From Candidatus Woesearchaeota archaeon (GTDB lineage: Archaea; Nanobdellota; Nanobdellia; Pacearchaeales; GW2011-AR1): 35,454 nucleotides of DNA. The position numbers were made by a program, and so were the translations under genes. Of this stretch, positions 1 through 29,927 are shown piece after piece. The stretch's first letter is position 1, and the number at the start of each line of letters is the position of its first letter. The notes beneath the pieces were generated by a model, which saw only the letters and a list, made by a program, of their open reading frames with translations, did not search any database and was not told the origin of the DNA. Where the stretch lies: contig CAYLGX010000003.1 in the NCBI GenBank assembly GCA_964383425.1, positions 1 to 35,454 of the forward strand, in the 5' to 3' direction.

Positions 1-3000
1 CAGTTAAGTTAGTAAACGCAGAATCAATTACCCAATTAGAACTTACATTGTATGCCGTATTAGTATAATTTGGAATATCACTGCCCATAAGATTAGAGAT
101 ATACGCATCTAAACTAATTGTTTGAGGTTTAATATAAACAATTGCAGGAGCAGAACTTATTGTTTGATATAAATAAGGCCCTGCTTGACTAGTTACTGCT
201 GTTACAGTCGCGTTTATTTGATAAGTATTAGTAAACTCACTAGTTTCGGAAGTAGATATTATTACAGCATCAGAGCGAACATCAAGGCCAAATACATAAC
301 TAACAGAAATGTTCTTCATTTCACCAGGCAATAAGGAATAGGCTGTAGATTTAGAAGCAGAATTAAGTGTTACTTTTCCGCTTTCAAGATTGTGTTGTGA
401 TTTAAATGTTAAAGTACAACCATCATTATAATTACTATCCCCAGTATTAGTTATAGAAATATTTCCAAGTTTCTTTGTTTCGCTGTAACCTGCAGTTGCT
501 TCAAGAGTGTTAGTTACACTCCAAGTACAATCCCAATAGCTACTAAAATTAAGTTCTGGACTTTCTCTTGCATTATTTGCAGTGTCTATAGCTAGTATCT
601 TAAAAGTATAATTTGTTTCATTAGAACTAGTTGTAAAATTAGTAGACCATACGCCATCATACTTAGTTCCTGAACCATTAACTAAATTCATAGTATAATT
701 CTGCCAATTATTTCCATCAAACATCTCAAGCACCGTAGCATTTACACTAGAAAGCGAATCCCGTACAGTCACATTAAATCGCATCAAAGTATTCGGATCA
801 ATACTACCATTTGTGTCGGGCGTATAAACCACATTAATCATAGTTGGCGCGTATGTATCAACCATCAAACTATTATTTCCCGACTGATTAGCATTACCAG
901 CCCAGTCAAATAAACTATAGAACCATTGGTAAATTCCATCCATCAAATTAACAACAACTCCAACAGTTGTCTGAACTGTTCCGCTAACAAAATTAATTGT
1001 TGTTTGATTTATTATTTGACTAACATTACTTCCATTAACAATGTTAAGTGTTGCATTTTGTATTCCTAAATTATCAGTTAAGTTAACAGTCAAATTAACT
1101 CCGTTATAATCGAAATAAGAATTATTTTCAAGTAATAGTGTTGCATTTGGGCTTGTTCGGTCAAGTACAATTACCTTTGTAGAAGTGTTAGTTACTTCTC
1201 CCACAGCATCTGTAGCTGTGGAGTTAAGATAGTAAATTCCCTCTGTTAAACTTGAATAATTTAGATATAAATTAATTGAAGAACCACTGGAATTATCAAA
1301 AGTTTGGTTTACTAAAGTAATTGTTAAATTCTGATAGTTATTTCTATAGTATAAATTAACATAACTTCCGTTCATATTTCCCTCATTGTCTGCAAAACTA
1401 ACATTGATAATTATTTCTGAAGAATTAAAGAATCCACTTTGTGTGGATGCATTGTCTACTGTAATCACCGGAGCAGTATTTCCTTTTACAAGTCTAGTTT
1501 CTGTTGTATTACTATTACCTGCTAGATCTATAACAGTAACATTGTAATAATATAATTGCCCCGGCAGTAATGCAGTCATATTTGTTAAACTTAAAGTCCA
1601 AACATTGTTTCCCAAATTTGTAAAGTTTGCGGAGTTATACCTATAAGTTACTCCATTCCAAGCAAAAGTAGCATTTGCAGGATTGATTTCAGTTACATTT
1701 ACTGCTATAGTTATTGCAACATTACTGCCAGTATCATTTCTTGGAGTTGGAGAAACAAAATACGGAACCGGAAGAGTTGTGTCAATATTCAGTGTGTTGT
1801 TAGTTGTTGAAAATTGATTATTTGCAAAATCAAATAAATTGTAGAACCAGTTATAAATTCCATCAATTAAATTAACAACAATGCCCACTGTTGAAGTTAA
1901 AGTTCCCTCTGCGCCCAAGATAATTACTAAAGTAGAATTAACTAAACTATTTGTTGAATTGTATATATTTAATGTTGCATTTGCTATTCCAGATTCATCA
2001 GTTAAATTAACAGTGTAGTTTTGTGTTTGATTATTTATATAACTTGCATTTGCAGGAGTAATTAAAATTGCATTAGGATTTACTAAATCTCTAATTAGAA
2101 TAGGCAGAGAATTAATTTGTGCGCCACAAGCAATAGAGTCGCAAGGCTGAACTTTGCTAGTAAATGAATCCCCTATAAATGTTTCATTTGAACCTAAAAT
2201 ATTTCCGCCATATTTTGAACCAGTGTATAATTGTTGAACTTCGTAATCAGATAAACTTCTATTGAAGATCATTACTTCATCTAGACTACCATTGAAAGAA
2301 GGAGTAGCGTCGTTAAAATGTTTACCCAAAACAATATTTTGAGCAGAAACTCCGCCACTAAAAGTTGAAGCTAGAAAAGATACAGATCCATTACTAGCTA
2401 TACCATTAACATATATTGTGATATTTTTTGTTACTACATTAACAATTGCAACTATGTGGGACCATTGATCCAAACTAATATTTTTGTAAGAATTTACAGA
2501 CTGGAAAGAATCGGAAGTACTACTTCTACCGCCCCATCTTATGGTCCCGTCCGTATATACTGCCAAAGTATTTCTTGCTTGGGACACTGTCGAAGTAGAT
2601 TCTCCATATAAGCCCATATTACTACCCAAACTTCTTGGTCTAATCCACATAGACACAGTCATTTCAGAATAACCATTAACTGTTGGCCCGGTGCCCAAAT
2701 TTATATAATCATTAATCCCATTAAAACTGTAAGCTCCTCCGACTTTTCCAGAATAATTTAATGTTGCTCCGCTAGTTGTTCCGTCATTAGCTCCAGCGTA
2801 ATCTAGCGTATCATTATTCAATGGATAATATGCTACAAGTCCATTTGTAATTAATGTTGTTCCAATTGTTTCATTAATCGCAGTTGAATTTGTTTTGTAC
2901 CATGAATAGATATTTGTAGTATTCCCATAACTATAACTTGAATTCAAATTAGGCAATATAGTTAAGTTTTGGTATGTATTATTATTTGAAATATTTGTGG

Positions 3001-6000
3001 AAGACAATATTACTGAACTTAATAACGGCGGAGATAAATAAACAGTTCCAACTCCTCCTGCAGTAGCAGATACATCCGTACTGCCTCCTGAAATTACATA
3101 AGTCAGATTAGATGAAGTTTGTTTCATATAAACTGCAATTCTTCCTCCTGCTCCTCCGCCAGCAGCACGATCCGCATTCCATGTACCTATTGAAGCAGTA
3201 GCTCCGCCAGCATTAACACTACCGGCCCCAATTATTCTTGTAGCATTTATAAGAATACTTCCGCCAGAACCGGCTCCAGAATTACAATAAATAGTTACCA
3301 AAGCTGGGGAGTTCCCTCTTGCATAAATATTTCCTGTTAAATTTAAGGTGTCTGTTATTTGTAATTTAATAATTCCTCCTCCACTTCCACCAATATTTTG
3401 GCCTGCACAATCATAACTTCTATGTCCTCCTCCGCCGCTACCAAAATCTACAGGGTTTGTTAAAGAACCATAACTTGTTCCTCCGGCTCCGCCCGCAGGA
3501 TATGCTCCTCCATTTCCACCTGCTCCCCCATAACCGGCTCCGCCACCTCCTGCATGTTGGACTGTATTTCCACTACCTCCGCCACCAAGTCCACTTCCGG
3601 CAGTATTATCTCCTCCTCCAGCATAACCTAGGCCAGTCGTATTAATTGTTCCAAGAACAGTTAAATTATTTGTGTAGATAGAGATATTCGCACCAGTAAT
3701 TTTTCCTCCAGCCATAATAGTGACTGTTGAAAAGTTAATTATTACTGATATTCTGCTGGTAACACTGTAAATGCTTCCAGTCGAATTAATAATTAAATTT
3801 CCAGTCCCACTAATAATTTCTCCATCTCTAAAATAATAAGTTCTGTTAAGTATACAAGTTGTAGATAAAGTTCCAGATGAACAAATATTCCCAATGGTTA
3901 AAGTATTATTTTGAGTGATAAGTTGATTATCATTAAAATCAAAAATATTCCAGAACCAATTGTAAATTCCATCTACTAGGTAAACTAGAATGCCCACTGT
4001 GGAAGTTAAAGTTCCACTTACTCCGGAAACGATTATTGAATTTTGATTAATTAAACTATTGGTAGAATTATAAACATTAAGTGTTGCATTTTTAATTCCC
4101 GCGAGATCATCTGTGAGATTTGCTGTAAAATTAACTCCGTTTAAATTATTTATTCCGCTATTATTCGCAGGACTAAAAGAGGTTACATTAACCGCATAAA
4201 TATCTGGATAATTTGACACATTGTAACTAAGAACATATGGAGCAACAGCAGTATTATTGGAATTAAAATTAGATTTAAATTGCATGAACTTTGAAGACGA
4301 AGCAGAATTAATTCCAACACCATCTCGCACATTTTGCGTTGTTGAGAAATTTCCACCATTACTCCAATTAATATGCATATTTCCCAAATTGTATAAATCG
4401 AGTACTTCTGCTGCGGAAAGAGAACGATTGTAGATACGAACTTCGTCGATAGAACCCGGATAATAATTTGCACCATAATTATAACTACCAATTTTTAGAA
4501 CCTGATTATTTGCTGCAATACCTGCGGAATAAAGTGTACCTGTCCCCTCCAATACCCCATCTACATAAATAAGTGAACGAGTACCATTATAAGTTCCAAC
4601 GATATGGTGCCACTTACCATCTTGAATATTTGAAGTTCCTTGTAATTGATTAAAGGTCGGACTTGTCGAATCTAACTCAATCATTGCTTTATTTGTGTTG
4701 GATTTCATCAAATTATAACCATTATAACCTGTGGTAAGTGTTTTTGATACTATATACCTATAACCGGAGTCGGTTGCAGAACCAAGTACCCAGGCAGACA
4801 TAGTTATATTTCCAGTAATGTTTAAACTAGGACTATCTGAAATATTGATAAAACTATTTGCACTTGCTGGAAAATATCCGCCGTTCCCAATAACACCGCT
4901 CGAAGAATTAATTATTGGACAAGTTGCACCAGAACATCCTCCCTGATTATTTCCATTGCTTAAATCAGTTCCTAGAATTTCATCTTCATCAAAATACCAT
5001 GTTGAAACTAAACTCGCATCTGCTGGCGCATGCATACCAAGTCCGAAATTATATAAATTTGATATTTCTGATGCCGATAGACTTCTATTGTATATTGCGA
5101 ATTCATCTAAGGAACCATTAAAATTAAGCCATCCCGAACCATCTAAAGATTTTCTCCCTATGTTTGCAGGAGTTGATGAACTTAAAGAACCAACAATATT
5201 ATTCACAGTAGTTGAAGCAAGAGCACCATCCAAATAGATTGTAAAATTTCCAGTCCTATTTATTGAAACGCTTAAATAATGCCATGAATTATTAATAGAA
5301 TTAACATTTGCCCAAATTGCAGAATTAAATGTACCGTTATTTAAAACGAAAGCAATTTGAGTTGCGTTATTAAGACCAAATAAATATCCCGCATTATTTA
5401 CATTACTTCGTTTATCCATTATAGTATTAGTTGCACTGCCCACCGTATTTATCCATGTAGAGATCGTAAAATCATTGGTGGCCATATTGGCTGCAGCGGC
5501 ATATGTTAAATTAACATAATCATTCACACCATCAAATTGTGCACAATTTCCGAGCTTACATCCAGTTTTATTTATCTTTACTCCGTTTTGAGGAACGCCG
5601 CCATTATTTCCCGAACTATCTGCAAAATTAAAATTATTCATTGCCCAGAATCCAACTAAACTCGGATCACTAACATTATAACTATTTGCAGTTCTTGTTT
5701 GTATTGTTACATTCGTATTTGCGTGCCCAGATAATCCGGATTTGTATAATTGATTAATTTCGGAAGTTGAAAGAGATTTGTTATAAACTAAAAATTCATC
5801 TAAACCTCCCATGTAATACGAACCGGCATTGTTATCAAAGGTTTTACCTAAATAACTTTTGCCACTTAATCCGATAGTATTTGGCCCCGTCATTATAAGA
5901 TTTCCATTTCGCCATAATGTTACATTTGTATCGTTAGCTACTGCTGTAATATAACTCCATTGCGACATTGGCACCACATCAGTTGGCGCAACCTGATTAG

Positions 6001-9000
6001 AACCGTCTGCAATTCCTAACTTACAACTGCTACCAATATACCAATCCGCATTATACCCTGTTTGACCAAAAATTCTATTTAATGAAGCCGAGCAAGTTCC
6101 AGTCAATGGATAAATCCATGCTGACATGGACCAATTCCGATTAGTAGTAATATTTGTAGATATATTTAATCCAATATTTAAATTGGCAGGAAATAAAATA
6201 GCATTACTTGATAAACCACTGTAATCACTTGGGCAATTAAGATTATTGTTATACCCATTGCAATAGGATATTGCACCAGTTTTAACGTCATTAAAATTAG
6301 TGTCCATCGAATAATAAACCATTAAATTCGGATTAGAAACATTAATAGAATTATCTTGATTAACAATTCCGCTTCTGCTTGTTGAATCTGCAGTCACTAA
6401 AGTTGTATTCCAATACGATTGTGTTGTGTTATAAAATACTCCGCTACTAAAAGAACTTAAAGCAGTTCTATATTTTCCAATTCTTGTTTGATTATTATAA
6501 ATTGCTAAAACATCTACTGCAGATAAATTGTAAGGCAAGACACGAACTTCATCGATAGTACCGTTGAAATAAACTAATGAACTATTTTTACCAAGATATA
6601 AAACATTTCCAGAATAATAAAATGGTTGTATCGGTACTATTCCTGCTACTCCGTTTACATAAGTACTTCCATTTGCATTTACAAAAAATTGCCAACCTGA
6701 ACCATTATTTATCCAAGCCATAGTTGTCATTTTTGTTTGAGTTATTGTTGTTGAAATAAAATCTCCACTAATTGCTCCGCCAAAATAATAAGCACTACTA
6801 GCATCTTTTCCGCCAGTCAGACTATATGTTGGCCCTTTACTTGTTCCAGATTGTCCAAGATAAGTTATCCCTCCGACAGAATTTCCTGCACTTACATCAA
6901 TAATTCCATTAAAAGAATTATCAGGATAAATCGCAATTCTTCCGCCAGCCCCACTTCCGGACCATTGTGTATAATTTGTTGATGCTCCCCCCTTTGCTGT
7001 AAAATTTCCAGAACCGGAAATATTTTGAGCATTAATCCAAACACTCCCGCCGGCTCCGCCGCCGCCCCTACAAGCTCCCGCTACTGCTCCCCAATTTCCA
7101 ATAATTCCACTGGATTCAATTAATCCATTATTTATTAATGTCCCGCTAATATTCATAAAAATTGCAGAACCACCGCGCCCCGTATAAACAATTCCGCAAT
7201 TAAGTAAATCTGCACCGCCCGCAGAACCCAGAGTAGTAGGATACATCATAGAACCATATACTGCTCCAACTACTGCGCCGCCAGTATTTGCCCCGCCAGT
7301 TCCACCATGACCCCCACCAGTTCCTCCCCCATGATTAGTTCCAGCTCCGGCTCCGGGGCCAGTTCCGTCCCGATAACCACAACCCGATAAATCAATGTAA
7401 GATCCAGCAGGTAATGTAAAGTTATTTGCGGTAATATTGACATATAAATTGGAAGTTGGAATTTGATTTCCGAGTACATTCCTAGTATAACCATAATTAA
7501 TATTACAGCCCAATTTAAAATTACCGATAAGAGTATGATTTTCTAAAATTAAATTAAAATTACTATACATTAATCTGGTATTAATATTGTCCAAAGTCAA
7601 ATTATGCCCGGTAAAATTCCAAGTACTATTTACTAATCTATTGAAGAAAGTTGTATCTTTATTGAACACATTTGTAGCCAAACCTCCGCGAATATAGATT
7701 TGTTTATGGTCTACGTCATTATAGACTAAAGAGCCAGAACCACTATAATTGTCTCCGGAGCTAACATTAGAGCTACCCAGTCCCGTCCAATCAGAAATAT
7801 TGTAGTAAACCGCTACTCTTCCTCCGCCACCGCCCCCCCCGTAATATGGCGCAGTATTACCTACTCCCCCCTTGGAAAGTAATAAACCATTACCGGATAA
7901 ATTATTAGTAGTGATATAAATAGAACCTCCTGCTCCTCCTGCTTCTCGCCCTCCTGAACCTGAAATTCCATTTGTAGTTATATTTGAATTTAATAAAATA
8001 TTTTGTGAATAAATATGGACTATTCCTCCGCCAGATTTACCTAAAGTTCCGGCCCCCCCGTCATTTGTTCCACCAGTACCGTAATCTGTTGGCATTAATA
8101 ATGAATCATGAGCACATCCGCCAAAATATTGACCCGAAGCATCTGCGCCATAACCACCATGACCCCCTCCAGCGCCCCCTCCATGAAACCCTGTGTCTCC
8201 CCTGCAAGTTCCAGTTTCACCAAGATAACCTAATCCCTCCGCATATATTTTAGAACCCGCATTCAAAGTTAGATTATCTGCAATAAGAGTAATATTCCCG
8301 CCCGTGATATTTCCCCCAGAAATAATTGTTATGGTTGCCCAATCCAGAATAATGCTCGCGCCATGATTTGTTCCAAAAACATTGGCAGAATAATTTGCAA
8401 TAGAACCTCTTGAACCAATAATTAAATTTCCAGCAGTACTTCCGCCCAAAATAATTCCACTTTGATAATAATAAGTATGATTCAATAAACAAGTTGTTGC
8501 AAATGAGCCAGTATCACAAAATCCATTACCCGTTGCGTTACCTACAAAAATTGTTCTAGTCTCTGTTTGAAAAGCATTATTAGAATTATCAAATAGAGTA
8601 TAAAACCAATTATATATTCCGTCAACTAATCCTACCACTACAGAAATTGTTTGTTGTAAATATGTTCCAAGAGTATTTGTAGTACTAGTATAGTTTGCTA
8701 CAAAACCTGTTTGATTGTTAATAGTTAAAGTTGCATTTGCTATTCCAGAAATATCATCTGTTGCAGTAACACTAAAATTAATATCTAAATTAGTAAAGTT
8801 AGAATTATTTAATGGAATTCCTAAAGAGGCATTAGGCACAACCGCATCGCTTAGGCCAATAGTTTGAGTTGAAAATCCAAGTAAATATGGCGAAACATCA
8901 GTAGTATTTGAATAGAAACTAGTTTTCATCTGCATAAACTTTCCAGGGAAACCTGCTTGAGAAGAAATTGATTGGCCCGTGCTTACTGTTTCAGTTGACC

Positions 9001-12000
9001 AATTTGAAACTCCACTAAACATTGTTAAGCCCATATTGTAAATATCTGCTGCTTCTGCTGCGCTAAGTGAACGATTATAGATTCTTATTTCATCAAGTAA
9101 ACCGTTATAACGGAAACTAGAATAACTTCCAGCTCTGCCGATTGCAGTACTACCATAAATAGAGGGAGGTAAAATTGCGCTTCCACCGGCAGTTGTTGTA
9201 ACTGAAACACCATTGAGATAACCTTGAACACCGTTAGTAAAATTTCTTACAAAAAGCACATGATACCATTTGCCTGCTTGAATTCCAGAAATAGTATAGG
9301 TTCTTCCGCCCACATTATTGCTCCAAGACATTTGAACAGAATTTGCAGGATTTGCTAAAACATTATACTGTGAATAAATTCCACCGGAATTATAATTAGA
9401 TAGCAGGTATCTTTGAGTACTAAAATCATTAGTATTAAACCATAAACTAACAGACATATTGGAGGACATATTTAATGAACTTGGTGTCCCCAAATCAATA
9501 AAATTACCATCATTGAAAGACATAGCTGGACCTACTATTGCTGAGGAGTTATAAACTGGTGCCGTGGTTGTTGTTCCATTCAATCCGTGACCGCTGTCAT
9601 CTTTCCAAATGCCAATTTCATCTTCATCAAATGCATAATATGAAACTAAATTAGGATCATATTCGAGATATTTTCTTCCATTATTTTGATTAGCATATAA
9701 TAAATTTATTTCGGAAGCAGAAAGACTTCTATTAAAAATCATAAACTCATCTAGGGAACCATTTACGGCAAAACCACTAGAATATCTGCCAATTTCCATA
9801 TTCCCTGATTGTAAGAAATTTCCATTGTAAACCGTACTGGAATTAGCAACCCATTGACCATTAAGATATAATTGATTATATTGTCCACTAGCTACTACTC
9901 CTGTAATTAATACCCAATTACCTGTTTGATTAGTCACATTATATCCTACAGTTTTATAAGTTACTCCAGTACCATTGAATGTGGAAAAGTATAACATTCC
10001 GGCACCATCAGTATTAAAATAATTCTGGAATGCGCCACCACTCGGAATAATCCATAAATAATTATTTGCTCCTGCGTCATATTTTATTTTAGCCCATATA
10101 GAAAATGTTGCACTTGGAACTCCATTTAGAGTTACACTCGAAGTTAACTTGTCATCAACACCATCGTAATTTAAACAAGAACCAACTTTACAAGTATTAG
10201 CTGAATTAGAAATTATTCCTCCGGAAGGAGTTGCGGGAAATCTCCCTTGTGAATCTTCCGCATAATATCCGTTTAATCCCCAATGACCGATAAGACTCGG
10301 ATCAGTATTATTATAATCCTGAGCAGTTCTTGTTTGCAAAGTTACATTTGTATTTGCATGTTGACTTAATCCAGATTTGTAAAGTTGCGAAACTTGACTT
10401 AAGGTTAAAGAAGTGTTATAGACTAATACCTCATCTAGGGAGCCGTTGAAATAGCCCAAAGCCGCTGCATAGTCAGCGTATCCTATTCCCAAATCAGTAT
10501 AACTTAATTTTGCTTGAGTTCCCGCCAAAGTATAGCCCGTCATTAGTTGATTATCGTAATAAACTAAATATTGTGTTCCATTCCAACTCAATACCATATG
10601 GTGCCAGTCGGCAGTAATGGAAGGTAAAGATGAAGATAAAACACAAGTTCTCGCAGAAGCACCATTATTCCAAATATTAATTAATTCATTAGCACAGACA
10701 CTTGTACTTGAGCCAAAAAATATTCCTTGAGAACTACCTGTTGAACCAATAAAATATCTATTTGTTGTTGCGGTTGTATGCGCAACTGCAGGCTTAAACC
10801 AAATACTTAATCCATCTACTGCTCCAACATTACCTGCATATATTCCTTGTGTTAAACCATCATATCTCATTGCATTTGAAGATAACCCGCTTGCATTATT
10901 AGGGCAATTAGTAGTACAAACTCCATTGTTAGCACCTTTTGCATCATTAAAGTTTTCATCTAAAGCCCAATAAGAAACTAAATTAGGATTAGATAAATTA
11001 ATTCCATTATTGTCCGCAATATCCCCAACTTGATTACCGTCTATCTTATTTATTGTTACATTCCAATAAGTTGGATAAGAATTATATTGTACTGGGGAGG
11101 CATAAGTTCCGCCCGGGGAGTGTCTTGCTGATTTATTTGCCAAAGTTCCGTTGTACAAATTCATAACTTCTGATGCGGATAAAGCTCGATTGAAAATTTG
11201 AACGTGGTCTAGTGAACCGTTGAAATAAGTTGCCGAATCTTGTCTTTTTCCCAGACTGTAAGTTACTCCTGAAACCGGATTAACTGAATAAGCTTCAGTA
11301 GTAGTCATAATTCCATTTTTGTACATACTTACATTAGCTCCACTATAAACTACCGTAATATATTCCCAGCTGTTTGAAGATAAATTTACTGCAGTTTTAT
11401 AATTATTATAAATTCCGTTTATTCTCCAAGCAGTAGAATTTGCAGCATTCATCCATAAACCAAAACCAGTAGTGCTATAAGTTCCAACATCAATAATCGC
11501 AGTATTATCTGCATTAGCTCCGTTTCTTTTTACCCAAGTAGATAATGTGAATGGGCCTGTAATAGATGACACTGATCCAGATATTACATCATTCACTCCG
11601 TCAAACATATAGGCCCCGCTACCATCTGGTCCACCTGCGGCGCCATATAATGGTGTTGTTAAAGAAGGATAGTTTGTTAATGTCGAAGTATTATTTCCCT
11701 TACTATCATTTGCTACGTTTCCAGATAGCTCGTCAAACTTATAGTATGAAACTAAATTTGAATCTGTTTCAAGACCAGAATTTCTAAGACCTAGTGATTG
11801 ATTATTGTAAAGATCAGTTATTTCTGTCTGAGATAAAGAGCGATTAAATAGCATTACTTCATCCATACTAGGTTTCCATAATCCGCCCGAAGCAGTTATT
11901 CCAGAACCTAACCTAATATTTCCGTTAGTCACTAATTGAGCACCAAAACTATTTGTACCGAGTCTAGACCCGTTAACAAAAATAGTTACATTCGAATAGG

Positions 12001-12661
12001 TAGTGTTAAAATTATTTACCACCATAACCAGGTGCATCCAATTTCCCGCGCTAAAATTAGCCAATTTACCCCAACAAGATCCACCTGTAACTCCTGTTGC
12101 TATCATATAAGCCCCACAAGTTGCCGGGCTCCAAGGAGATATTCTAACATCCCATTGGTTCGTATTTGATACCACCATATAAACTCCATTTCCATCTACC
12201 CCAGTAGTAGAAAGACTGTTGGTAAAATACCACCAAGATAAGGTATAGTTACTCCCTAAATTTGGCAAACTCGGAATATTAACATAATCATCGACGCCAT
12301 CAAACTGCAAACTGTTATTAATTTTACTTCCGATATTTCTCCAAGCGCTGTCATTGATATAACCGTTGGCAGTTCCATAATTATTATAGATGGAGTTATC
12401 TTTAATATAAGTTCCCTGAATAGGAGTAGAATTAATGTATATTGTTGGAGCATTTTCTGAAATAGTATTAAAATCCATTGCTAATATTGCGGCAGTATTT
12501 CTAATTCCAAAAGCAGTTGCTTCACTATTACTTACCAAAATATTATCACTTGAAGTATAAATGTAAGTTACTAGTGGAGCTATAATTAAAGCAGCCAATA
12601 AAATTACAATTAATAAAGGCGAAAATACTTTTAATTTATTTTTTTTAATCGAGAGTACCAT
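1..12661 (-). CDS. Giant membrane-anchored surface/adhesin-like protein, 3' end cut by the window edge (4220 codons visible). Signal anchor, 10 LamG (Laminin_G_3 / concanavalin-A-like lectin) domains, Ig-like modules and 3 glycine-rich beta-helix-like blocks.
   Basis: The minus-strand frame whose plus-strand triplets start at positions = 2 mod 3 has no tta/cta/tca triplet from position 2 up to the ATG at 12661-12659; I walked it 60-nt line by line. N-terminus MVLSIKKNKLKVFSPLLIVILLAALIIAPLVTYIYTSS is a Lys-rich n-region plus a hydrophobic anchor. Ten LamG C-terminal signatures of the type (L/I)DE(V/F)xI(Y/F)NRSLSxxE(V/I) lie at 2237-2284, 4403-4450, 5063-5110, 5756-5803, 6509-6556, 9050-9097, 9707-9754, 10391-10438, 11165-11212 and 11819-11866. 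Several that I translated upstream also show a GxW(H/M)H core, e.g. DGKWHHIVGTYNG. Ig-like motif DGIY(N/Q)WF occurs at 905-940, 1829-1864, 3938-3973 and 8588-8623. Gly-rich blocks lie at about 3040-3640, 6930-7390 and 7800-8245. The ORF is absent from the track only because no stop lies inside the window. Confidence 0.9.
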   Translation of the reverse strand, partial: MVLSIKKNKLKVFSPLLIVILLAALIIAPLVTYIYTSSDNILVSNSEATAFGIRNTAAILAMDFNTISENAPTIYINSTPIQGTYIKDNSIYNNYGTANGYINDSAWRNIGSKINNSLQFDGVDDYVNIPSLPNLGSNYTLSWWYFTNSLSTTGVDGNGVYMVVSNTNQWDVRISPWSPATCGAYMIATGVTGGSCWGKLANFSAGNWMHLVMVVNNFNTTYSNVTIFVNGSRLGTNSFGAQLVTNGNIRLGSGITASGGLWKPSMDEVMLFNRSLSQTEITDLYNNQSLGLRNSGLETDSNLVSYYKFDELSGNVANDSKGNNTSTLTNYPSLTTPLYGAAGGPDGSGAYMFDGVNDVISGSVSSITGPFTLSTWVKRNGANADNTAIIDVGTYSTTGFGLWMNAANSTAWRINGIYNNYKTAVNLSSNSWEYITVVYSGANVSMYKNGIMTTTEAYSVNPVSGVTYSLGKRQDSATYFNGSLDHVQIFNRALSASEVMNLYNGTLANKSARHSPGGTYASPVQYNSYPTYWNVTINKIDGNQVGDIADNNGINLSNPNLVSYWALDENFNDAKGANNGVCTTNCPNNASGLSSNAMRYDGLTQGIYAGNVGAVDGLSIWFKPAVAHTTATTNRYFIGSTGSSQGIFFGSSTSVCANELINIWNNGASARTCVLSSSLPSITADWHHMVLSWNGTQYLVYYDNQLMTGYTLAGTQAKLSYTDLGIGYADYAAALGYFNGSLDEVLVYNTSLTLSQVSQLYKSGLSQHANTNVTLQTRTAQDYNNTDPSLIGHWGLNGYYAEDSQGRFPATPSGGIISNSANTCKVGSCLNYDGVDDKLTSSVTLNGVPSATFSIWAKIKYDAGANNYLWIIPSGGAFQNYFNTDGAGMLYFSTFNGTGVTYKTVGYNVTNQTGNWVLITGVVASGQYNQLYLNGQWVANSSTVYNGNFLQSGNMEIGRYSSGFAVNGSLDEFMIFNRSLSASEINLLYANQNNGRKYLEYDPNLVSYYAFDEDEIGIWKDDSGHGLNGTTTTAPVYNSSAIVGPAMSFNDGNFIDLGTPSSLNMSSNMSVSLWFNTNDFSTQRYLLSNYNSGGIYSQYNVLANPANSVQMSWSNNVGGRTYTISGIQAGKWYHVLFVRNFTNGVQGYLNGVSVTTTAGGSAILPPSIYGSTAIGRAGSYSSFRYNGLLDEIRIYNRSLSAAEAADIYNMGLTMFSGVSNWSTETVSTGQSISSQAGFPGKFMQMKTSFYSNTTDVSPYLLGFSTQTIGLSDAVVPNASLGIPLNNSNFTNLDINFSVTATDDISGIANATLTINNQTGFVANYTSTTNTLGTYLQQTISVVVGLVDGIYNWFYTLFDNSNNAFQTETRTIFVGNATGNGFCDTGSFATTCLLNHTYYYQSGIILGGSTAGNLIIGSRGSIANYSANVFGTNHGASIILDWATITIISGGNITGGNITLIADNLTLNAGSKIYAEGLGYLGETGTCRGDTGFHGGGAGGGHGGYGADASGQYFGGCAHDSLLMPTDYGTGGTNDGGAGTLGKSGGGIVHIYSQNILLNSNITTNGISGSGGREAGGAGGSIYITTNNLSGNGLLLSKGGVGNTAPYYGGGGGGGRVAVYYNISDWTGLGSSNVSSGDNYSGSGSLVYNDVDHKQIYIRGGLATNVFNKDTTFFNRLVNSTWNFTGHNLTLDNINTRLMYSNFNLILENHTLIGNFKLGCNINYGYTRNVLGNQIPTSNLYVNITANNFTLPAGSYIDLSGCGYRDGTGPGAGAGTNHGGGTGGGHGGTGGANTGGAVVGAVYGSMMYPTTLGSAGGADLLNCGIVYTGRGGSAIFMNISGTLINNGLIESSGIIGNWGAVAGACRGGGGAGGSVWINAQNISGSGNFTAKGGASTNYTQWSGSGAGGRIAIYPDNSFNGIIDVSAGNSVGGITYLGQSGTSKGPTYSLTGGKDASSAYYFGGAISGDFISTTITQTKMTTMAWINNGSGWQFFVNANGSTYVNGVAGIVPIQPFYYSGNVLYLGKNSSLVYFNGTIDEVRVLPYNLSAVDVLAIYNNQTRIGKYRTALSSFSSGVFYNTTQSYWNTTLVTADSTSRSGIVNQDNSINVSNPNLMVYYSMDTNFNDVKTGAISYCNGYNNNLNCPSDYSGLSSNAILFPANLNIGLNISTNITTNRNWSMSAWIYPLTGTCSASLNRIFGQTGYNADWYIGSSCKLGIADGSNQVAPTDVVPMSQWSYITAVANDTNVTLWRNGNLIMTGPNTIGLSGKSYLGKTFDNNAGSYYMGGLDEFLVYNKSLSTSEINQLYKSGLSGHANTNVTIQTRTANSYNVSDPSLVGFWAMNNFNFADSSGNNGGVPQNGVKINKTGCKLGNCAQFDGVNDYVNLTYAAAANMATNDFTISTWINTVGSATNTIMDKRSNVNNAGYLFGLNNATQIAFVLNNGTFNSAIWANVNSINNSWHYLSVSINRTGNFTIYLDGALASTTVNNIVGSLSSSTPANIGRKSLDGSGWLNFNGSLDEFAIYNRSLSASEISNLYNFGLGMHAPADASLVSTWYFDEDEILGTDLSNGNNQGGCSGATCPIINSSSGVIGNGGYFPASANSFINISDSPSLNITGNITMSAWVLGSATDSGYRYIVSKTLTTGYNGYNLMKSNTNKAMIELDSTSPTFNQLQGTSNIQDGKWHHIVGTYNGTRSLIYVDGVLEGTGTLYSAGIAANNQVLKIGSYNYGANYYPGSIDEVRIYNRSLSAAEVLDLYNLGNMHINWSNGGNFSTTQNVRDGVGINSASSSKFMQFKSNFNSNNTAVAPYVLSYNVSNYPDIYAVNVTSFSPANNSGINNLNGVNFTANLTDDLAGIKNATLNVYNSTNSLINQNSIIVSGVSGTLTSTVGILVYLVDGIYNWFWNIFDFNDNQLITQNNTLTIGNICSSGTLSTTCILNRTYYFRDGEIISGTGNLIINSTGSIYSVTSRISVIINFSTVTIMAGGKITGANISIYTNNLTVLGTINTTGLGYAGGGDNTAGSGLGGGGSGNTVQHAGGGGAGYGGAGGNGGAYPAGGAGGTSYGSLTNPVDFGSGGGGHRSYDCAGQNIGGSGGGIIKLQITDTLNLTGNIYARGNSPALVTIYCNSGAGSGGSILINATRIIGAGSVNAGGATASIGTWNADRAAGGGAGGRIAVYMKQTSSNLTYVISGGSTDVSATAGGVGTVYLSPPLLSSVILSSTNISNNNTYQNLTILPNLNSSYSYGNTTNIYSWYKTNSTAINETIGTTLITNGLVAYYPLNNDTLDYAGANDGTTSGATLNYSGKVGGAYSFNGINDYINLGTGPTVNGYSEMTVSMWIRPRSLGSNMGLYGESTSTVSQARNTLAVYTDGTIRWGGRSSTSDSFQSVNSYKNISLDQWSHIVAIVNVVTKNITIYVNGIASNGSVSFLASTFSGGVSAQNIVLGKHFNDATPSFNGSLDEVMIFNRSLSDYEVQQLYTGSKYGGNILGSNETFIGDSFTSKVQPCDSIACGAQINSLPILIRDLVNPNAILITPANASYINNQTQNYTVNLTDESGIANATLNIYNSTNSLVNSTLVIILGAEGTLTSTVGIVVNLIDGIYNWFYNLFDFANNQFSTTNNTLNIDTTLPVPYFVSPTPRNDTGSNVAITIAVNVTEINPANATFAWNGVTYRYNSANFTNLGNNVWTLSLTNMTALLPGQLYYYNVTVIDLAGNSNTTETRLVKGNTAPVITVDNASTQSGFFNSSEIIINVSFADNEGNMNGSYVNLYYRNNYQNLTITLVNQTFDNSSGSSINLYLNYSSLTEGIYYLNSTATDAVGEVTNTSTKVIVLDRTSPNATLLLENNSYFDYNGVNLTVNLTDNLGIQNATLNIVNGSNVSQIINQTTINFVSGTVQTTVGVVVNLMDGIYQWFYSLFDWAGNANQSGNNSLMVDTYAPTMINVVYTPDTNGSIDPNTLMRFNVTVRDSLSSVNATVLEMFDGNNWQNYTMNLVNGSGTKYDGVWSTNFTTSSNETNYTFKILAIDTANNARESPELNFSSYWDCTWSVTNTLEATAGYSETKKLGNISITNTGDSNYNDGCTLTFKSQHNLESGKVTLNSASKSTAYSLLPGEMKNISVSYVFGLDVRSDAVIISTSETSEFTNTYQINATVTAVTSQAGPYLYQTISSAPAIVYIKPQTISLDAYISNLMGSDIPNYTNTAYNVSSNWVIDSAFTNLT
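3050..6650 (-). repeat. Intragenic higher-order repeat unit B (4 LamG + Ig-like + Gly-rich block) of the giant CDS
   Basis: Domain signatures in this unit sit 4635-4656 nt from their counterparts in unit A. LamG motifs at 6509/5756/5063/4403 pair with 11165/10391/9707/9050, and the DGIYNWF motif at 3938 pairs with 8588. The DNA is diverged, so this is an old duplication. Boundaries are approximate. Confidence 0.55.
7700..11300 (-). repeat. Intragenic higher-order repeat unit A (4 LamG + Ig-like + Gly-rich block) of the giant CDS
   Basis: Same evidence as unit B. The order and spacing of the four LamG signatures, the Ig-like motif and the Gly-rich block are conserved at an offset of about 4.65 kb. 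Confidence 0.55.
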
Positions 12662-12986
12662 AATTATTGTATATTGATTTATCTACTACAGTTATTGGGC
12701 CGAGTGTGGAATTTGTTGTTTCTGCAGCCTCATTAAAATCAAAATAAAGTGAACTGGCCGTAGGTCTAACTCCGTAGGGTGTGCTTTCAGTAGAATTAGA
12801 GAATACTAAATCGCCGGATGTTGAAAATAAAAAGTATGCTGCTGGTGCAATGATCAAAGCGCAAAGAAGAATAATTAATGCTATGATCAAAACAACTTTC
12901 AATACGGGTTTAAAATTTTTAAATTTATTTTCTTTCTTTTGTTTTTTCCCGATTTTTCCCGATTTTACTTTTTTTTGCTTTTTCAT
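12645..12986 (-). CDS. 113-aa membrane-anchored 'leader-only' paralogue of the giant protein N-terminus
   Basis: ATG at 12986. A Lys-rich n-region is followed by TM VVLIIALIILLCALIIAPAAYFLF. The protein aligns to the first ~100 aa of the giant protein: ILL.ALIIAP, L.(V/F)SNS, DFN, NST and the exact octapeptide SIYNNYGT. It stops 2 codons after that octapeptide, where the first LamG domain of the giant protein begins. It overlaps the giant ATG by 17 nt and the upstream gene by ATGA. Confidence 0.6.
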   Translation of the reverse strand: MKKQKKVKSGKIGKKQKKENKFKNFKPVLKVVLIIALIILLCALIIAPAAYFLFSTSGDLVFSNSTESTPYGVRPTASSLYFDFNEAAETTNSTLGPITVVDKSIYNNYGTLD

Positions 12987-13165
12987 TTTTCACCCTCAAA
13001 AATTATTTTTACTCTCTTGCCCAAGTATTCTTTTGGGACGATAACATGACATCCTGTTCCAAAACCTGCAACTTGTCTTTCGAGAATTTCACTTCCAGTT
13101 AGCTGTAGAATTATTTCGCTCTTTCCGAAGCTTTCTTCACCTTTTCCTTCTTTTTTCGAACTCAT
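12983..13165 (-). CDS. Small DUF2080-like protein (60 aa), first gene of the giant-protein operon
   Basis: ATG at 13165. The C-terminal motif FGTGCHVIVPKEYLGKRVKIIF matches my recollection of the archaeal DUF2080 pattern (fG.s..v.vPk.wiGk.v.vi). Its stop overlaps the next ATG (ATGA at 12983-12986). Confidence 0.55.
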   Translation of the reverse strand: MSSKKEGKGEESFGKSEIILQLTGSEILERQVAGFGTGCHVIVPKEYLGKRVKIIFEGEK

Positions 13166-13168
13166 GAT

Positions 13169-13194
13169 TGATATATATTTGATATATATTTAAA
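13169..13194 (-). promoter_or_regulatory. TATA-like box plus perfect tandem 11-mer upstream of the DUF2080/giant-protein operon
   Basis: The plus strand has tgatatatatt twice in tandem (13169-13179 and 13180-13190). On the minus strand this reads TTTAAATATATA (13194-13183), 18-29 nt upstream of the ATG at 13165. That spacing is consistent with an archaeal TATA box driving a leaderless or short-leader mRNA. Confidence 0.35.
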
Positions 13195-13279
13195 CCTTTT
13201 CAATTAGGAAAAATTAATAATTCCTCAGATTTTGATGGCCCATAACAATAATTAAAAAGCAATAAAGACATGTTTAATT

Positions 13280-13597
13280 ATGAAACCTAAACCTCTGGCC
13301 AATTTAGAACAAGATTATGATCTGGAACTAGCTCGGGCAGTAAAAGAAATAAAAAAACAGAAGGCAAAACGAGTTTTACTCCAGGTTCCTGACTTTTTTA
13401 AGCCGTATGCTACTCAAATTGCAGATAAACTTGAAAAAGCTACAAAAGTAGAAGTCTTTATTTATTTTGGTTCTTGCTTTGGAGCCTGCGATATTCCTAC
13501 GGATGAGGCCAAGGCAGTAAATTGCGATATGATTATACAGCTAGGTCATTCTAACTGGGACTTTAAGGATAAAAAAGAGATTCAGGTATTAAAGTAA
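13280..13597 (+). pseudogene. dph2: N-terminal domain-1 fragment of diphthamide synthase Dph2 (truncated or split gene)
   Basis: AKRVLLQVPDFFKPYATQIADKLE..VEVFIYFGSCFGACDIPTDEAKAVNCDMIIQLGHS matches the Dph2 N-terminal domain, including the GACD cysteine motif. The ORF stops after 105 aa, whereas archaeal Dph2 is about 330-350 aa. Only 146 nt of AT-rich spacer follow before the next gene. Confidence 0.7.
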
Positions 13598-16076: not shown

Positions 16077-17207
16077 CTAAAGTTTACGAGGCAATTCATA
16101 ACCTACTCTTGCATCTATTTTAAATCCACTATTGCCTATTTCTCCTGCAGCATTTGCTAGGTGCCATTTTTTTCCACATTTTTCCAAATATTTTGAATCT
16201 ATTTTAAATCTTACTTCAATTCCTTCGCAATTTTCTATTGGTCGATTACCTGTCTTTATTTGCAAGTCCCTTAGCCACATATTACTACTTTCTTCTCGAC
16301 TAATTCCATCCAGAGTATACATATATGCCTGTGCAAGTTGACCTGCAACAAGGATAGAATCTACTGATGAAAAATGAGCGGTGCAGACTTTATCTTTTTT
16401 AATTGACCAGTCTCCGCCAGCATAAGTTAAATCTACTTTAGCAGTTATTTCTTTTTCAGCTAGATTTATTTCAACATTATGAATATTATGCCGAGTATTT
16501 CTATATCCATTTGAAAAAAATCTTTTTGTCGGGTCTCCAAGTATATCTTCAATCTTATCAAAATAGACTACTTCTCCTTGCTTTTTGCCGCCATAAGTAG
16601 TACTGCTGGCATCAAGATCTAATGCGTTAACTATTCGATCTAATCTTTCTTGGACGCTTCCACCTATAATGACTGGATTAAATCCTAATTCTCTCCAAGC
16701 TCCAAGGAGTATTTCATCTGCCTTTTTTCTAAAATCTTCTGATACCGGCCTATGTCCGTCTTTAGGTAAGGCAAACTCTACAGGTAAATGAATAATATCA
16801 GTATAATTTTGTTTAGCATGTCGTTTTACTATTTCTCCGAATGTTTTCATTCCAAATTCATATTCTTTAGAAATTAATTCTGTTCCCTTGCCCATTGCAC
16901 CCTCTACTTGTCTTCCATATCCATATGCCCATTCATGAAGCGCAGAACCATCAGAGATAAAACCACTCATAACTGCTCGTTCGAGCGCAACTCTTTCCCC
17001 GTATCTAATTATTCCCAGTTGTAATAATTCACTTTCTCCGCATTCTTCTAGTTTTTTTCCAGGAAAGGTTTCCGGCAAGATATCTCTCATTCCCCTAGCT
17101 ACCGCTTTTGGAATACCCGTAACTCTTGCTAATTCATTTGTTATTGTGGATTTTCCAGTTCCGTAAGTTCCAGAAATTACAATTCTTTTATTTAAATTAC
17201 TAGCCAT
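16077..17207 (-). CDS. P-loop NTPase/kinase (AAA_28 / NadR-kinase-like) fused to a ~170-aa C-terminal domain of unknown family
   Basis: ATG at 17207. Walker A is ISGTYGTGKST. The N-terminal ~200 aa resemble AAA_28-type ATPases (..IPKAVARG.., FISDGSALHEWAYG, IIHLPVEF.LPKDGHRP, GGSVQERL). I do not recognise the C-terminal half (RFFSNGYRNTRH...HFSSVDSILVAGQLAQAYMY...). Confidence 0.65.
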   Translation of the reverse strand: MASNLNKRIVISGTYGTGKSTITNELARVTGIPKAVARGMRDILPETFPGKKLEECGESELLQLGIIRYGERVALERAVMSGFISDGSALHEWAYGYGRQVEGAMGKGTELISKEYEFGMKTFGEIVKRHAKQNYTDIIHLPVEFALPKDGHRPVSEDFRKKADEILLGAWRELGFNPVIIGGSVQERLDRIVNALDLDASSTTYGGKKQGEVVYFDKIEDILGDPTKRFFSNGYRNTRHNIHNVEINLAEKEITAKVDLTYAGGDWSIKKDKVCTAHFSSVDSILVAGQLAQAYMYTLDGISREESSNMWLRDLQIKTGNRPIENCEGIEVRFKIDSKYLEKCGKKWHLANAAGEIGNSGFKIDARVGYELPRKL

Positions 17208-21317: not shown

Positions 21318-22544
21318 ATGAAAATGTTTATAGGTTTAATTATTTTAGCTCTAAGTTTTACTTTTGCAAGCGCAGATATTTTTATTAATGAAGTTGAACT
21401 TAATCCAGAAGGCACTGACAGTGCAAATGAATGGCTGGAGTTATATAGTGATTCTTTTGTAAATCTTACTAACTGGGTTATAAGTAGCAGCAATGGTAGA
21501 AATATGACATTTAATGCTTCATTTAGCGGATTTTATATTATTAATACTTCGACTAATCTTTTAACCAATACAGACAACAATCTCCTACTCAAAAATAGTA
21601 GCTCTGGTATAATTTTTTCTTCTATAAATTTAACTGATTCATTAGATGATGCTCGTACATGGCAATATTGTAGCGGTAGCTGGAACTTTTCAATTTCTAC
21701 TCCTGGCGCAGCAAATAACTGCACAATTACCAGCAATAATACTAACTCCACTACAAATTCAACAAATAATACTTGTACTGGAAGTTATACTTGCACTTCT
21801 TGGACTTCGTGCTCTAGTAGTCTACAAACAAGGGCCTGTACCAATACTAGCACCAGCTGCGTGATTAGTACCCGAACTGAAAGCCAAAGCTGCACTAGTT
21901 CTTCAGATATTAGTCTTGATTTTAGTTGGAATGAAGAAGAGATAATAAATAATCGTGTGTTTAATATTACTCTTGAAGCAAATAATTTGGAAGATATGAA
22001 ATATGATATAAAAGTATGGCTTGAATCCGATGAAACCGATCTTGATTTAAAATCAGAGACATATGATGAAGATTTAGAAACCTGGAAGTCATCTAATTAT
22101 TTTATTGAAAAATTCTTTAAAGGGGACGGAGATAAAACAAAAGAAATCCAGATCAGGATAAAATCCAGTTATACTGATTATGCTGGGGAAGCAACAATCT
22201 ACTTTAGGCTAAGGGAGAGTGATTCAGAAAAGACTATAACTACTATTGATGACTCTATTGAAATTATTGTTTCCGAAGAGGAAGAGATACAAGATAGCGT
22301 AGAGACTAACTCAATACCAACTGCTTATGCAATATCTAATTCTGATTCAACAAGTGAAAATAAACTAACTACTACTTCCCTAATTAAGAAAACTGCTAAA
22401 ACAGAAGATATAAAAATGCCAGAAAATTCAATTTATTTGTCTAGAACAGAACAAATAAAGAGATATGCGCCTTATGCCTTTTGCATACTATGCATTTTTT
22501 TATTAGCTTTGATTATAATAGACTCAAAAAAACATAAAAACTAA
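21318..22544 (+). CDS. Secreted lamin-tail-domain (LTD) protein with a Cys-rich motif, an acidic region and a C-terminal TM anchor
   Basis: A signal peptide MKMFIGLIILALSFTFASA is followed by the LTD signature IFINEVELNPEGTDSANEWLELY. The Cys motif is CTGSYTCTSWTSCSSSLQTRACTNTSTSC. The C-terminal TM is FCILCIFLLALIIID. Confidence 0.75.
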   Translation: MKMFIGLIILALSFTFASADIFINEVELNPEGTDSANEWLELYSDSFVNLTNWVISSSNGRNMTFNASFSGFYIINTSTNLLTNTDNNLLLKNSSSGIIFSSINLTDSLDDARTWQYCSGSWNFSISTPGAANNCTITSNNTNSTTNSTNNTCTGSYTCTSWTSCSSSLQTRACTNTSTSCVISTRTESQSCTSSSDISLDFSWNEEEIINNRVFNITLEANNLEDMKYDIKVWLESDETDLDLKSETYDEDLETWKSSNYFIEKFFKGDGDKTKEIQIRIKSSYTDYAGEATIYFRLRESDSEKTITTIDDSIEIIVSEEEEIQDSVETNSIPTAYAISNSDSTSENKLTTTSLIKKTAKTEDIKMPENSIYLSRTEQIKRYAPYAFCILCIFLLALIIIDSKKHKN

Positions 22545-26491: not shown

Positions 26492-26550
26492 AGTGCGGTT
26501 GTATTTAAAAGACTTTCGATTAATTATGAGGAGAGTACGAATTTGCCAGA

Positions 26551-28891: not shown

Positions 28892-28911
28892 GTATAATAT
28901 AGCTGATTTCA

Positions 28912-28920
28912 ATTTAAATA
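28912..28920 (-). promoter_or_regulatory. TATA-like box for the primase operon
   Basis: The minus strand reads TATTTAAAT, 21-29 nt upstream of the ATG at 28891. Confidence 0.35.
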
Positions 28921-29000
28921 GTCAGTTATGCTAGATTATACAGTTAACTTTAATAAATTTTCTAAATCAAAAAACCTAACTAAGCCGCAAGCGAAGAAAC

Positions 29001-29026
29001 ACCCCTATAATATACCCCTAAGTATA
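29001..29026 (+). repeat. Tandem ACCCCTA-core direct repeat in the primase/PCNA divergent intergenic region
   Basis: acccctataatat and acccctaagtata abut each other, with the ACCCCT cores at 29001 and 29014 (13-nt period). They lie immediately upstream of the PCNA TATA-like box. Confidence 0.4.
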
Positions 29027-29030
29027 ACAA

Positions 29031-29040
29031 TATTTAAAAG
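29031..29040 (+). promoter_or_regulatory. TATA-like box for PCNA
   Basis: tatttaaaag lies 22-31 nt upstream of the ATG at 29062. Confidence 0.35.
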
Positions 29041-29061
29041 CGGTTAATGTTATAGAGTAAT

Positions 29062-29793: not shown

Positions 29794-29835
29794 TTCTGTT
29801 ATCATTAGATAATTAATCAGTTACCATACAATTAA

Positions 29836-29847
29836 TTTTTAATTTTT
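29836..29847 (+). terminator. Two T5 runs downstream of PCNA (archaeal oligo-T terminator candidate)
   Basis: ttttt at 29836-29840 and 29843-29847, 43-54 nt after the PCNA stop. Confidence 0.3.
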
Positions 29848-29925: not shown

Positions 29926-29927
29926 TT

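Follow-up and report, generated by a model that had tools for sequence, protein, structure and literature searches.

The first 12.66 kb of a 35,454-nucleotide stretch of contig CAYLGX010000003.1 (assembly GCA_964383425.1, positions 1 to 35,454; hereafter the window) are occupied on the minus strand by one very long gene. Its product, here called the giant protein, combines a hydrophobic N-terminal segment with ten LamG domains, three glycine-rich domains modelled as beta-helices and a series of immunoglobulin (Ig)-like beta-sandwiches, and ends in a region that was traced to an unnamed family of archaeal stalk-and-anchor proteins. The reading that best fits these features, with a probability of about 0.7, is that the giant protein is a type I membrane-anchored, heavily N-glycosylated modular adhesin of a DPANN-type archaeon from the Woesearchaeota/Pacearchaeota group. 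The term "surface protein" is held with much higher confidence than the term "host adhesin".

The giant gene

An earlier note on this DNA had claimed a minus-strand frame without stops from an ATG at position 12661 to the edge of the window, in a region where the track of open reading frames (ORFs) appears empty. Machine translation of the reverse complement of positions 2-12661 yielded the 4220 codons of that claim with no stop among them. The start codon lies at 12661-12659, an in-frame stop is found seven codons upstream at 12685, and the frame is still open at base 2, where the window edge truncates its 3' end. Between 239 and 486 stops occur in each of the other five frames over this stretch. 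Given a stop probability of 0.076 per codon, derived from the base composition of the strand, the odds of 4220 open codons arising by chance are about 10^-145. The gap in the track was also as described: the lister, set to at least 100 residues, returned only two ORFs within positions 1-12661 (4183-4491 and 12645-12986), and the giant ORF is missing from it because ORFs that run off an end are left out. A contig's largest gene can thus go unseen in ORF tracks that drop edge-truncated frames.

The giant ORF is a real and very long gene. Internal repeats of its DNA are 60-87% identical, which makes a collapse of repeats during assembly unlikely. Its GC content of 32-39% is close to that of the remaining window and gives no indication of a recent foreign origin. 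No copy of the window turned up when genome, metagenome and viral contigs were scanned with proteins as guides, and an exact look-up of one neighbouring protein gave no record.

N terminus, cysteine residues and sequons

The giant protein begins with MVLSIKKNKLKV, followed by a strongly hydrophobic stretch. Hydrophobic windows of 19 residues start at residues 8-20 and span residues 8-38, with a Kyte-Doolittle mean of up to 2.9, and a lysine-rich stretch precedes them. The signal anchor proposed in the earlier note is consistent with this hydropathy profile, and export by the Sec pathway is predicted from the same feature. The composition is dominated by Asn (12.1%), Gly (11.9%), Ser (11.0%) and Thr (9.8%). 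The 32 cysteine residues of the visible protein form 16 close pairs, with 4-42 residues between partners. The N-x-S/T sequons, previously noted as dense, number 186, compared with 103.6±8.5 in 2000 composition-preserving shuffles (z = 9.7, maximum 131). This is a 1.8-fold enrichment, whereas the reversed motif, with 106 occurrences, is not enriched. The density of 4.4 sequons per 100 residues compares with 0-1.2 for most other ORFs of the window, two of which reach 2.3 and 3.4. The cysteine pairs and sequons suggest stabilization by disulfides and a dense coat of N-glycans. Together with the acidic isoelectric point (pI) and the predicted N-terminal anchor, they make up the signature of an extracellular glycoprotein.

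Codons 5-8 of the ORF include an A8 homopolymer (ATT AAA AAA AAT, at about 12639-12648 on the minus strand). If this run gained or lost one base, the giant ORF would be switched off, and phase variation by this route is a speculation; A8-type runs are to be expected by chance in DNA of 34% GC, as a rough estimate.

LamG domains and glycine-rich domains

A Pfam scan placed Laminin_G_3 (PF13385) on ten stretches of the giant protein with a score of 561 bits (E 1.6e-170; gathering threshold 27.6 bits). A hidden Markov model (HMM) built from the protein's own LamG copies likewise returned exactly ten envelopes, in agreement with the ten LamG domains counted earlier. Weaker lectin-type matches overlap these stretches, namely to the sialidase N-terminal domain, the clostridial toxin receptor-binding N-domain, Laminin_G_1, Laminin_G_2 and pentaxin. 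Two motifs recur, F-D-G-x-D/N-D-Y in four copies and G-x-L/I-D-E-V/F...N-R-S-L-S in eight. The NCBIfam model for TafC (NF052521) scored 207 bits over seven partial stretches, matching only its LamG part (model positions 200-362 of 373). A TafC family fimbrial protein was ruled out, since the equivalog cut-off is 410 bits over the full model.

The three Gly-rich blocks of the earlier note proved to be homologous domains of about 270 residues each (residues 1380-1651, 1679-1941 and 2925-3215), 33-39% identical to one another. A C-x8-C pair stands ahead of two of the three, including the first. An AlphaFold2 model of the third domain, calculated from a 23-row alignment, is beta-helix-like, with a predicted local distance difference test (pLDDT) score of 91.6 and a predicted template modelling (pTM) score of 0.91. 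A word-index search with the block gave only six matches, probably as a result of its low-complexity composition, and an exhaustive profile search was used instead. Against 1.84 billion representative sequences, the profile retrieved 8946 proteins at E<=1e-3 and 1911 at E<=1e-30, from bacteria as well as archaea. Many of the carriers are 2000-6500 residues long with 4-11 copies. Those with names are large bacterial surface proteins (Bacteriovorax, Auribacterota, Desulfatibacillum) with labels such as S-layer, CARDB and dockerin. One metagenomic protein of 5850 residues (P0017) combines eight LamG domains with six Gly-rich domains and a C-terminal transmembrane helix.

The fold was compared with known families and structures. 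Pfam, applied to 23 copies of the block, returned no family even at E<=1, and searches of Protein Data Bank (PDB) sequences with the whole giant protein and with the block profile gave nothing meaningful. Foldseek with the model found nothing in the PDB at E<=0.001. All of its matches there had E>0.4 and template modelling scores (TM-scores) below 0.3; these weak neighbours are mostly beta-helix proteins (among them pectate lyases, alginate lyases and polygalacturonase). Clearer matches to the model came only from predicted structures, namely Gly-rich proteins of giant viruses and algal viruses (E down to 3e-7, TM-score up to 0.52). Conservation in the block falls almost entirely on glycine residues, an indication of a structural and not a catalytic function. 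According to the model and the profile search, the blocks are a defined and widespread predicted beta-helix domain and not low-complexity linkers.

Ig-like modules and internal duplication

The motif DGIY(N/Q)WF occurs at residues 1347, 2897, 3600 and 3908, in homologous units of about 110 residues that are 44-60% identical wherever BLASTP aligns them. The four modules of the earlier note were recovered; their label "Ig-like" rests, within the giant protein, on Pfam matches below threshold (Big_3_2 at 17-22 bits and Big_13 at about 20 bits, with gathering thresholds of 23.3 and 27 bits, respectively). A homologous module in protein P0007, 56% identical, passes the Big_13 threshold with 35.4 bits. 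The scan of residues 1212-1380, which cover the first module, fitted no Pfam family, and this module is assigned as Ig-like because it is homologous to the other three. Between the third and fourth modules, residues 3632-3829 are the most sequon-dense part of the protein in the sequon profile. The beginning of the stalk, after the fourth module, contains a further Ig-like module with sub-threshold matches to Big_3_2, DUF7035 and DUF7743. At least six to seven Ig-like beta-sandwiches are counted in the ectodomain.

Tiled BLASTP showed that residues 432-1481 are colinear with residues 1990-3015, at 30-49% identity and an offset of about 1550 residues, and DNA repeats 4635-4650 nucleotides apart mirror this arrangement. 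An old tandem duplication has thus enlarged the giant gene; the duplicated supermodule, of about 1550 residues, comprises several LamG domains together with one Ig-like module and one Gly-rich block. The internal repeats of the protein have diverged to 25-60% amino-acid identity.

The C-terminal family and the missing end

The last 720 residues match 13 proteins at 28-48% identity, those with names being from archaeal metagenome-assembled genomes. Within this region, the final 335 or so visible residues align at 32-37% identity to a stalk-and-anchor family whose members are annotated as hypothetical (for example P0002, P0006, P0189 and P0197). In this alignment (A1), W158, D159, C160, T161 and W162 are invariant, and the TA-N-S-N of an NTAYNVS-NW motif is conserved. 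Relatives of the WDCTW region were found at 31 loci in GTDB species genomes (tblastn, E down to 4e-59). Of these loci, 27 are labelled Woese-, Pace- or Nanoarchaeota or unclassified "archaeon"; three lie in bins with bacterial labels and one in a Methanosarcinales bin, and these four are taken to be binning noise or rare transfer. A search with the module recovered at least 83 protein clusters, mostly of 1000-1400 residues and nearly all "hypothetical", the named ones from the same archaeal groups; a few family matches are labelled Aenigmarchaeota. On this evidence, the visible C terminus is assigned to an as yet unnamed Woese-/Pacearchaeota family.

The N-terminal heads vary across the family and include LamG, Big_13, Beta_helix, F5/8-type-C, DUF2341 and NPCBM-associated domains, and several genomes hold two copies. 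The largest complete relatives among the fetched loci have 2533 and 2292 residues, and two members carry five LamG domains. With at least 4220 residues and ten LamG domains, as against 1062-2533 residues and none to five LamG domains in the others, the giant protein is by far the largest member among those compared.

The earlier note had left the total length unknown. Its visible minimum of 4220 residues stands, and the homologues now provide an estimate of the whole: most of the complete relatives continue for 526-548 residues beyond the cut point, so the full protein probably has about 4750 residues. In the closest homologue, its sequence and an AlphaFold2 model of its C-terminal 830 residues (pLDDT 84.8) give the order of the tail. 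The beta-sandwiches of the stalk are followed by a cysteine-rich stretch (knot), a poly-Gly linker, another beta-sandwich, a helical bundle, a long helix with a single transmembrane segment and a cytoplasmic helical tail of about 150 residues. Foldseek matched the stalk model to generic tandem Ig-like chains (integrin legs, cadherins, macroglobulins and the extender of the RTX adhesin MpAFP), and Pfam found no domain in the helical, coiled-coil tails of the homologues.

A conserved gene neighbourhood accompanies the homologues at loci L003, L004, L006, L009-L014, L017, L020, L022, L023, L028, L029 and L031; for the giant gene, any such partners would lie outside the window. Directly downstream of the homologues, often with overlapping stop and start codons, is a gene for a protein of about 300 residues with a signal, a helical ectodomain, a transmembrane helix and a cytoplasmic coiled coil. 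Its tail weakly resembles that of the family (35% identity over 76 residues, E 1e-4). Six loci also have a membrane protein of about 160 residues near the homologue. At 11 of the 31 homologue loci, a KaiC-type ATPase (PF06745, E 2e-40) is encoded no more than 10 kb away, in variable position and strand.

Proposed function and alternatives

Taken together, these features suggest the following mechanism. The lysine-rich N terminus and hydrophobic helix would direct export through the Sec pathway. The ectodomain is a chain of independently folding modules, comprising the ten LamG domains, the three predicted Gly-rich beta-helices and the six to seven or more Ig-like modules; disulfides at the cysteine pairs would stabilize it and N-glycans at the sequons would coat it. 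At its C-terminal end, the chain passes into the conserved stalk, and the tail beyond the window, by analogy with the relatives, would hold a single transmembrane helix and a cytoplasmic helical portion. Anchored in this way, the stalk could hold a long multivalent lectin array off the small cell, where it may bind glycans on a host envelope or another surface. An attachment role is thereby proposed from the domain content, and the swappable heads and the two family copies in several genomes fit an adhesin repertoire.

Several points weigh against this interpretation. The assignment to DPANN rests on the taxonomy of the homologues and on archaeal neighbouring genes in the window (Hjc, PCNA, a primase small-subunit-like protein and a diphthamide-synthesis fragment). 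Expression, glycosylation, surface location and glycan binding are all predictions, and the hydrophobic N terminus, judged by its hydropathy, may be either a cleaved signal peptide or a signal anchor. The putative C-terminal anchor lies outside the window. Enzymes and structural envelope proteins can have LamG and beta-helix folds as well, and a host-associated lifestyle is not proven for Woese- and Pacearchaeota in general.

Other functions were weighed as well. In one of these, the giant protein is a structural, S-layer-type envelope protein, with the membrane-anchored stalk family forming the main cell coat and the LamG/beta-helix head an outer canopy. A lineage-wide conserved anchor module would suit such a coat, as would the high sequon density and acidic pI, which resemble those of archaeal S-layer glycoproteins. 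One bacterial protein with the Gly-rich domain is labelled "S-layer family protein", and lectin-like domains have been reported in putative S-layer proteins of Nanobdella (bioRxiv 10.1101/2023.10.27.564410). However, the heads differ greatly among family members, whose sizes range from 1062 to more than 4220 residues, and two or more paralogues exist in several genomes. A monomer of about 4750 residues would also be far above any lattice-forming S-layer protein known to us, and we regard a coat function as unlikely. A role as the outer part of an ATP-driven device across the envelope, comparable to that proposed for the giant SPEARE proteins of Nanohaloarchaeota, was judged improbable. Here the tail would be coupled to the KaiC-type ATPase and the small membrane partner for secretion, signalling or force. 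The protein encoded directly after homologous genes, with its family-like tail, and the ATPase at 11 of 31 loci speak for this coupling, and in nanohaloarchaea the giant proteins possess a VirB4-like ATPase domain on the cytoplasmic side, with an ATPase gene next to theirs (PMC10266531). Yet the KaiC linkage is variable in position and strand, the 4220 visible residues contain no ATPase or channel domain, and the window, which lacks the downstream side, contains no partner gene.

More improbable still is a cell-bound protein for capturing or degrading polysaccharides, in which the Gly-rich beta-helices would be catalytic, lyase- or hydrolase-like, with the LamG domains serving as carbohydrate-binding modules in feeding. 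The lyases and polygalacturonase among the weak Foldseek neighbours, the presence in glycoside hydrolases of LamG/ConA-like folds that work as carbohydrate-binding modules (Pfam PF13385 description) and a dockerin in one homologous protein are in line with this view. They are outweighed by the lack of any catalytic family in Pfam or NCBIfam at E<=0.01, by PDB fold matches that all fall at E>0.4 and TM-scores below 0.3, and by the glycine-dominated conservation of the block. Finally, the giant ORF could be non-functional, as a chance frame, a pseudogene or an assembly chimera. The truncation at the window edge, a duplicated 5' fragment upstream (see below) and the A8 run in codons 5-8 would be compatible with this explanation. 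It is effectively refuted already by the odds against so long an open frame, by ten Pfam domains far over threshold, by DNA repeats too dissimilar for a likely collapse or chimera, and by an architecture shared with homologues.

A membrane-anchored adhesin is the preferred reading. A bolder extension of this reading, which we consider doubtful, would make the giant protein the largest known member of an undescribed surface system specific to the Woese-/Pacearchaeota lineage. Such a system would consist of an anchored stalk with swappable lectin heads and a coiled-coil tail in the cytoplasm, the membrane proteins of about 300 and 160 residues and the KaiC-type ATPase, through which ATP might control the adhesin from inside by clustering, signalling or release; the head in this case would include a Gly-rich domain that lacks a Pfam family and a solved relative.

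Upstream ORFs and other genes of the window

The positions of all features are collected in Table 1. The 113-residue ORF directly upstream is 43% identical to the N terminus of the giant protein over 68 residues (BLASTP, E 2e-11). It is a diverged duplicate of the first 97 or so codons of the giant gene, including the lysine-rich start, the transmembrane helix and the sequence ...SIYNNYGT, and either is what remains of a tandem duplication at the 5' end or encodes a small membrane protein of its own. A single gene split by a frameshift was rejected, because the upstream TAA begins ahead of the A8 run and the length of the run cannot remove that stop. In addition, the second transmembrane helix of such a fusion would leave the ectodomain inside the cell. 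An A/T-rich, TATA-like box, TTTAAATATATA, was seen by eye shortly upstream of the ATG of the DUF2080 ORF, at about 13185-13196. The DUF2080 ORF, the 113-residue ORF and the giant gene probably form one operon, with DUF2080 first.

The 1347-residue ORF at the far end of the window has a weak Big_13 match in its C terminus and eight sequons only. It was rejected as a paralogue of the giant protein, as it is cysteine-rich, poor in sequons and without a BLASTP match to the giant protein or P0002; it is probably another envelope or membrane protein. The ORFs of 408 and 428 residues may encode further glycosylated surface proteins, judging from their sequon densities, and the 105-residue ORF looks like a truncated or split dph2 gene. 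Positions 24677-30550 hold a replication and repair cluster that encodes a 629-residue protein, a Cas4/PD-(D/E)XK nuclease, a primase/PrimPol-like protein (weak match), PCNA and a MarR/helix-turn-helix protein; this cluster may represent a core locus for replication or else an element that has integrated. We know of no archaeal example of the AAA_28 and AvrD combination seen in the 376-residue protein. There are no tRNA genes in the window.

Table 1. Position and basis of the features assigned in the window
Feature	Residues	Positions	Strand	Basis or remarks
Giant ORF		2..12661	-	4220 codons; visible part 447 kDa, pI 4.85
Lys-rich segment and hydrophobic helix	1-38	12548..12661	-	Hydropathy; predicted Sec-type signal peptide or signal anchor
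LamG 1	118-288	11798..12310	-	Pfam and HMM
LamG 2	351-506	11144..11611	-	Pfam and HMM
LamG 3	598-764	10370..10870	-	Pfam and HMM
LamG 4	830-992	9686..10174	-	Pfam and HMM
LamG 5	1047-1211	9029..9523	-	Pfam and HMM
DGIYNWF module 1	1268-1378	8528..8860	-	Probably Big_13/Big_3_2-type Ig-like beta-sandwich, by homology to modules 2-4
Gly-rich domain 1	1380-1651	7709..8524	-	Homology, profile; C-x8-C pair before
Gly-rich domain 2	1679-1941	6839..7627	-	Homology
LamG 6	1912-2058	6488..6928	-	Pfam and HMM
LamG 7	2156-2309	5735..6196	-	Pfam and HMM
LamG 8	2374-2540	5042..5542	-	Pfam and HMM; also Toxin_R_bind_N match
LamG 9	2596-2760	4382..4876	-	Pfam and HMM; best Pfam stretch
DGIYNWF module 2	2816-2928	3878..4216	-	Motif, homology; Big_3_2 E 0.0066
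Gly-rich domain 3	2925-3215	3017..3889	-	Copy modelled
LamG 10	3311-3482	2216..2731	-	Pfam and HMM; also Sialidase N-terminal lectin domain and Pentaxin matches
DGIYNWF module 3	3521-3631	1769..2101	-	56% identical to P0007 module passing Big_13 threshold
About two more beta-sandwich (Ig-like) modules	3632-3829	1175..1768	-	Weak Big_13; homology to P0001, P0002, P0006
DGIYQWF module 4	3830-3939	845..1174	-	Motif, homology
Stalk start: Ig-like module, then WDCTW beta-sandwich, NTAYNVS-NW motif	3940-4220	2..844	-	Alignment A1; cut by window edge
Duplication copy A, about 1050 residues: four LamG, Ig module, start of Gly block	432-1481	8219..11368	-	BLASTP, DNA repeats
Duplication copy B	1990-3015	3617..6694	-	BLASTP, DNA repeats
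113-residue ORF		12645..12986	-	BLASTP, DNA alignment; directly upstream, overlaps giant ATG by 17 nucleotides in another frame
60-residue DUF2080 ORF ("putative transposon-encoded protein")		12983..13165	-	Pfam 26 bits, cut-off 21.5; stop overlaps start of 113-residue ORF (ATGA)
105-residue ORF		13280-13597	+	Matches only positions 2-61 of 302-position diphthamide-synthesis profile
376-residue protein		16077-17207	-	AAA_28 ATPase domain and AvrD (Pseudomonas avirulence D) domain
408-residue ORF		21318-22544	+	3.4 sequons per 100 residues; weak Lamin Tail Domain match
428-residue ORF		23157-24443	-	2.3 sequons per 100 residues
1347-residue ORF		31305-35348	+	N-terminal hydrophobic segment, very Cys-rich first 600 or so residues, Gly/Ala-rich hydrophobic middle, beta-rich C terminus

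Comparison with known systems

DPANN archaea are thought to depend on contact with other cells, and their attachment molecules are known by prediction only, mostly from Nanohaloarchaeota and Nanoarchaeota sensu stricto. The giant locus adds a well-delimited and very large attachment candidate with a clear domain map from the poorly studied Woese- and Pacearchaeota. The stalk-and-anchor family, with its at least 83 protein clusters and interchangeable lectin heads, could be mined for determinants of host range.

The giant bacterial RTX adhesins of the SiiE, MpIBP and LapA type share the logic of a beta-sandwich extender chain that presents ligand-binding domains (PMC7493085, PMC5550230). They differ in type 1 secretion, in near-identical Ca2+-dependent bacterial Ig-like repeats and in their outer-membrane location, whereas the giant protein has a Sec-type N terminus and heterogeneous modules. 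An RTX adhesin was rejected, as Pfam found no RTX/HemolysinCabind repeats in the giant protein and its internal repeats have diverged. The bacterial "beta strand repeat-containing" proteins of Bacteriovorax, Auribacterota and Desulfatibacillum and the taxonomically unassigned P0017 have the Gly-rich domain of about 270 residues in common with it, often in 4-11 copies. These proteins carry other anchors (dockerin, lipoprotein) and are not colinear with the giant protein.

Among archaea, the SPEARE and giant proteins of Nanohaloarchaeota (5998-9409 residues) are similar in their Sec-type N terminus and huge Ig-like ectodomain, and resemble the family of the giant protein in a C-terminal membrane anchor with a cytoplasmic portion and in a proposed host interaction (PMC10266531, PMC6642349). 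They are characterized by WD40-like propellers and a cytoplasmic VirB4/TraG-like ATPase, where the tail of the giant protein's family is helical or coiled coil. Neither domain was found by Pfam or NCBIfam in the 4220 visible residues, and the giant protein is for this reason not considered to be of the SPEARE type.

Closest in kind are the LamG proteins of DPANN archaea. Large secreted proteins with LamG/ConA-like domains and many sequons are typical of this group and have been proposed as probable host-attachment systems (PMC7443923, PMC5498576, PMC10266531). Cultivated nanohaloarchaea have proteins with up to five LamG domains as well as giant membrane-anchored surface proteins of 8880-9409 residues (PMC10266531). 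Host attachment by the giant protein is plausible and in line with these proposals. Like the LamG proteins of Ca. Nanohalobium constans LC1Nh, Ca. Nanohalococcus SVXNc and ARMAN-2 Mia14, it has multiple LamG domains, is predicted to be secreted or membrane-bound, carries many potential N-glycosylation sites, and is organism-specific with a predicted role in host attachment (PMC7443923, PMC10266531, PMC5498576). As far as the published descriptions go, it is set apart from them by ten LamG domains instead of up to five, by the three predicted Gly-rich beta-helices and by the Woese-/Pace-/Nanoarchaeota stalk. A protein of this LamG-rich, sequon-rich type will not surprise a specialist, since the type has already been described for DPANN archaea; the giant protein is an unusually large example of it and not a size record.

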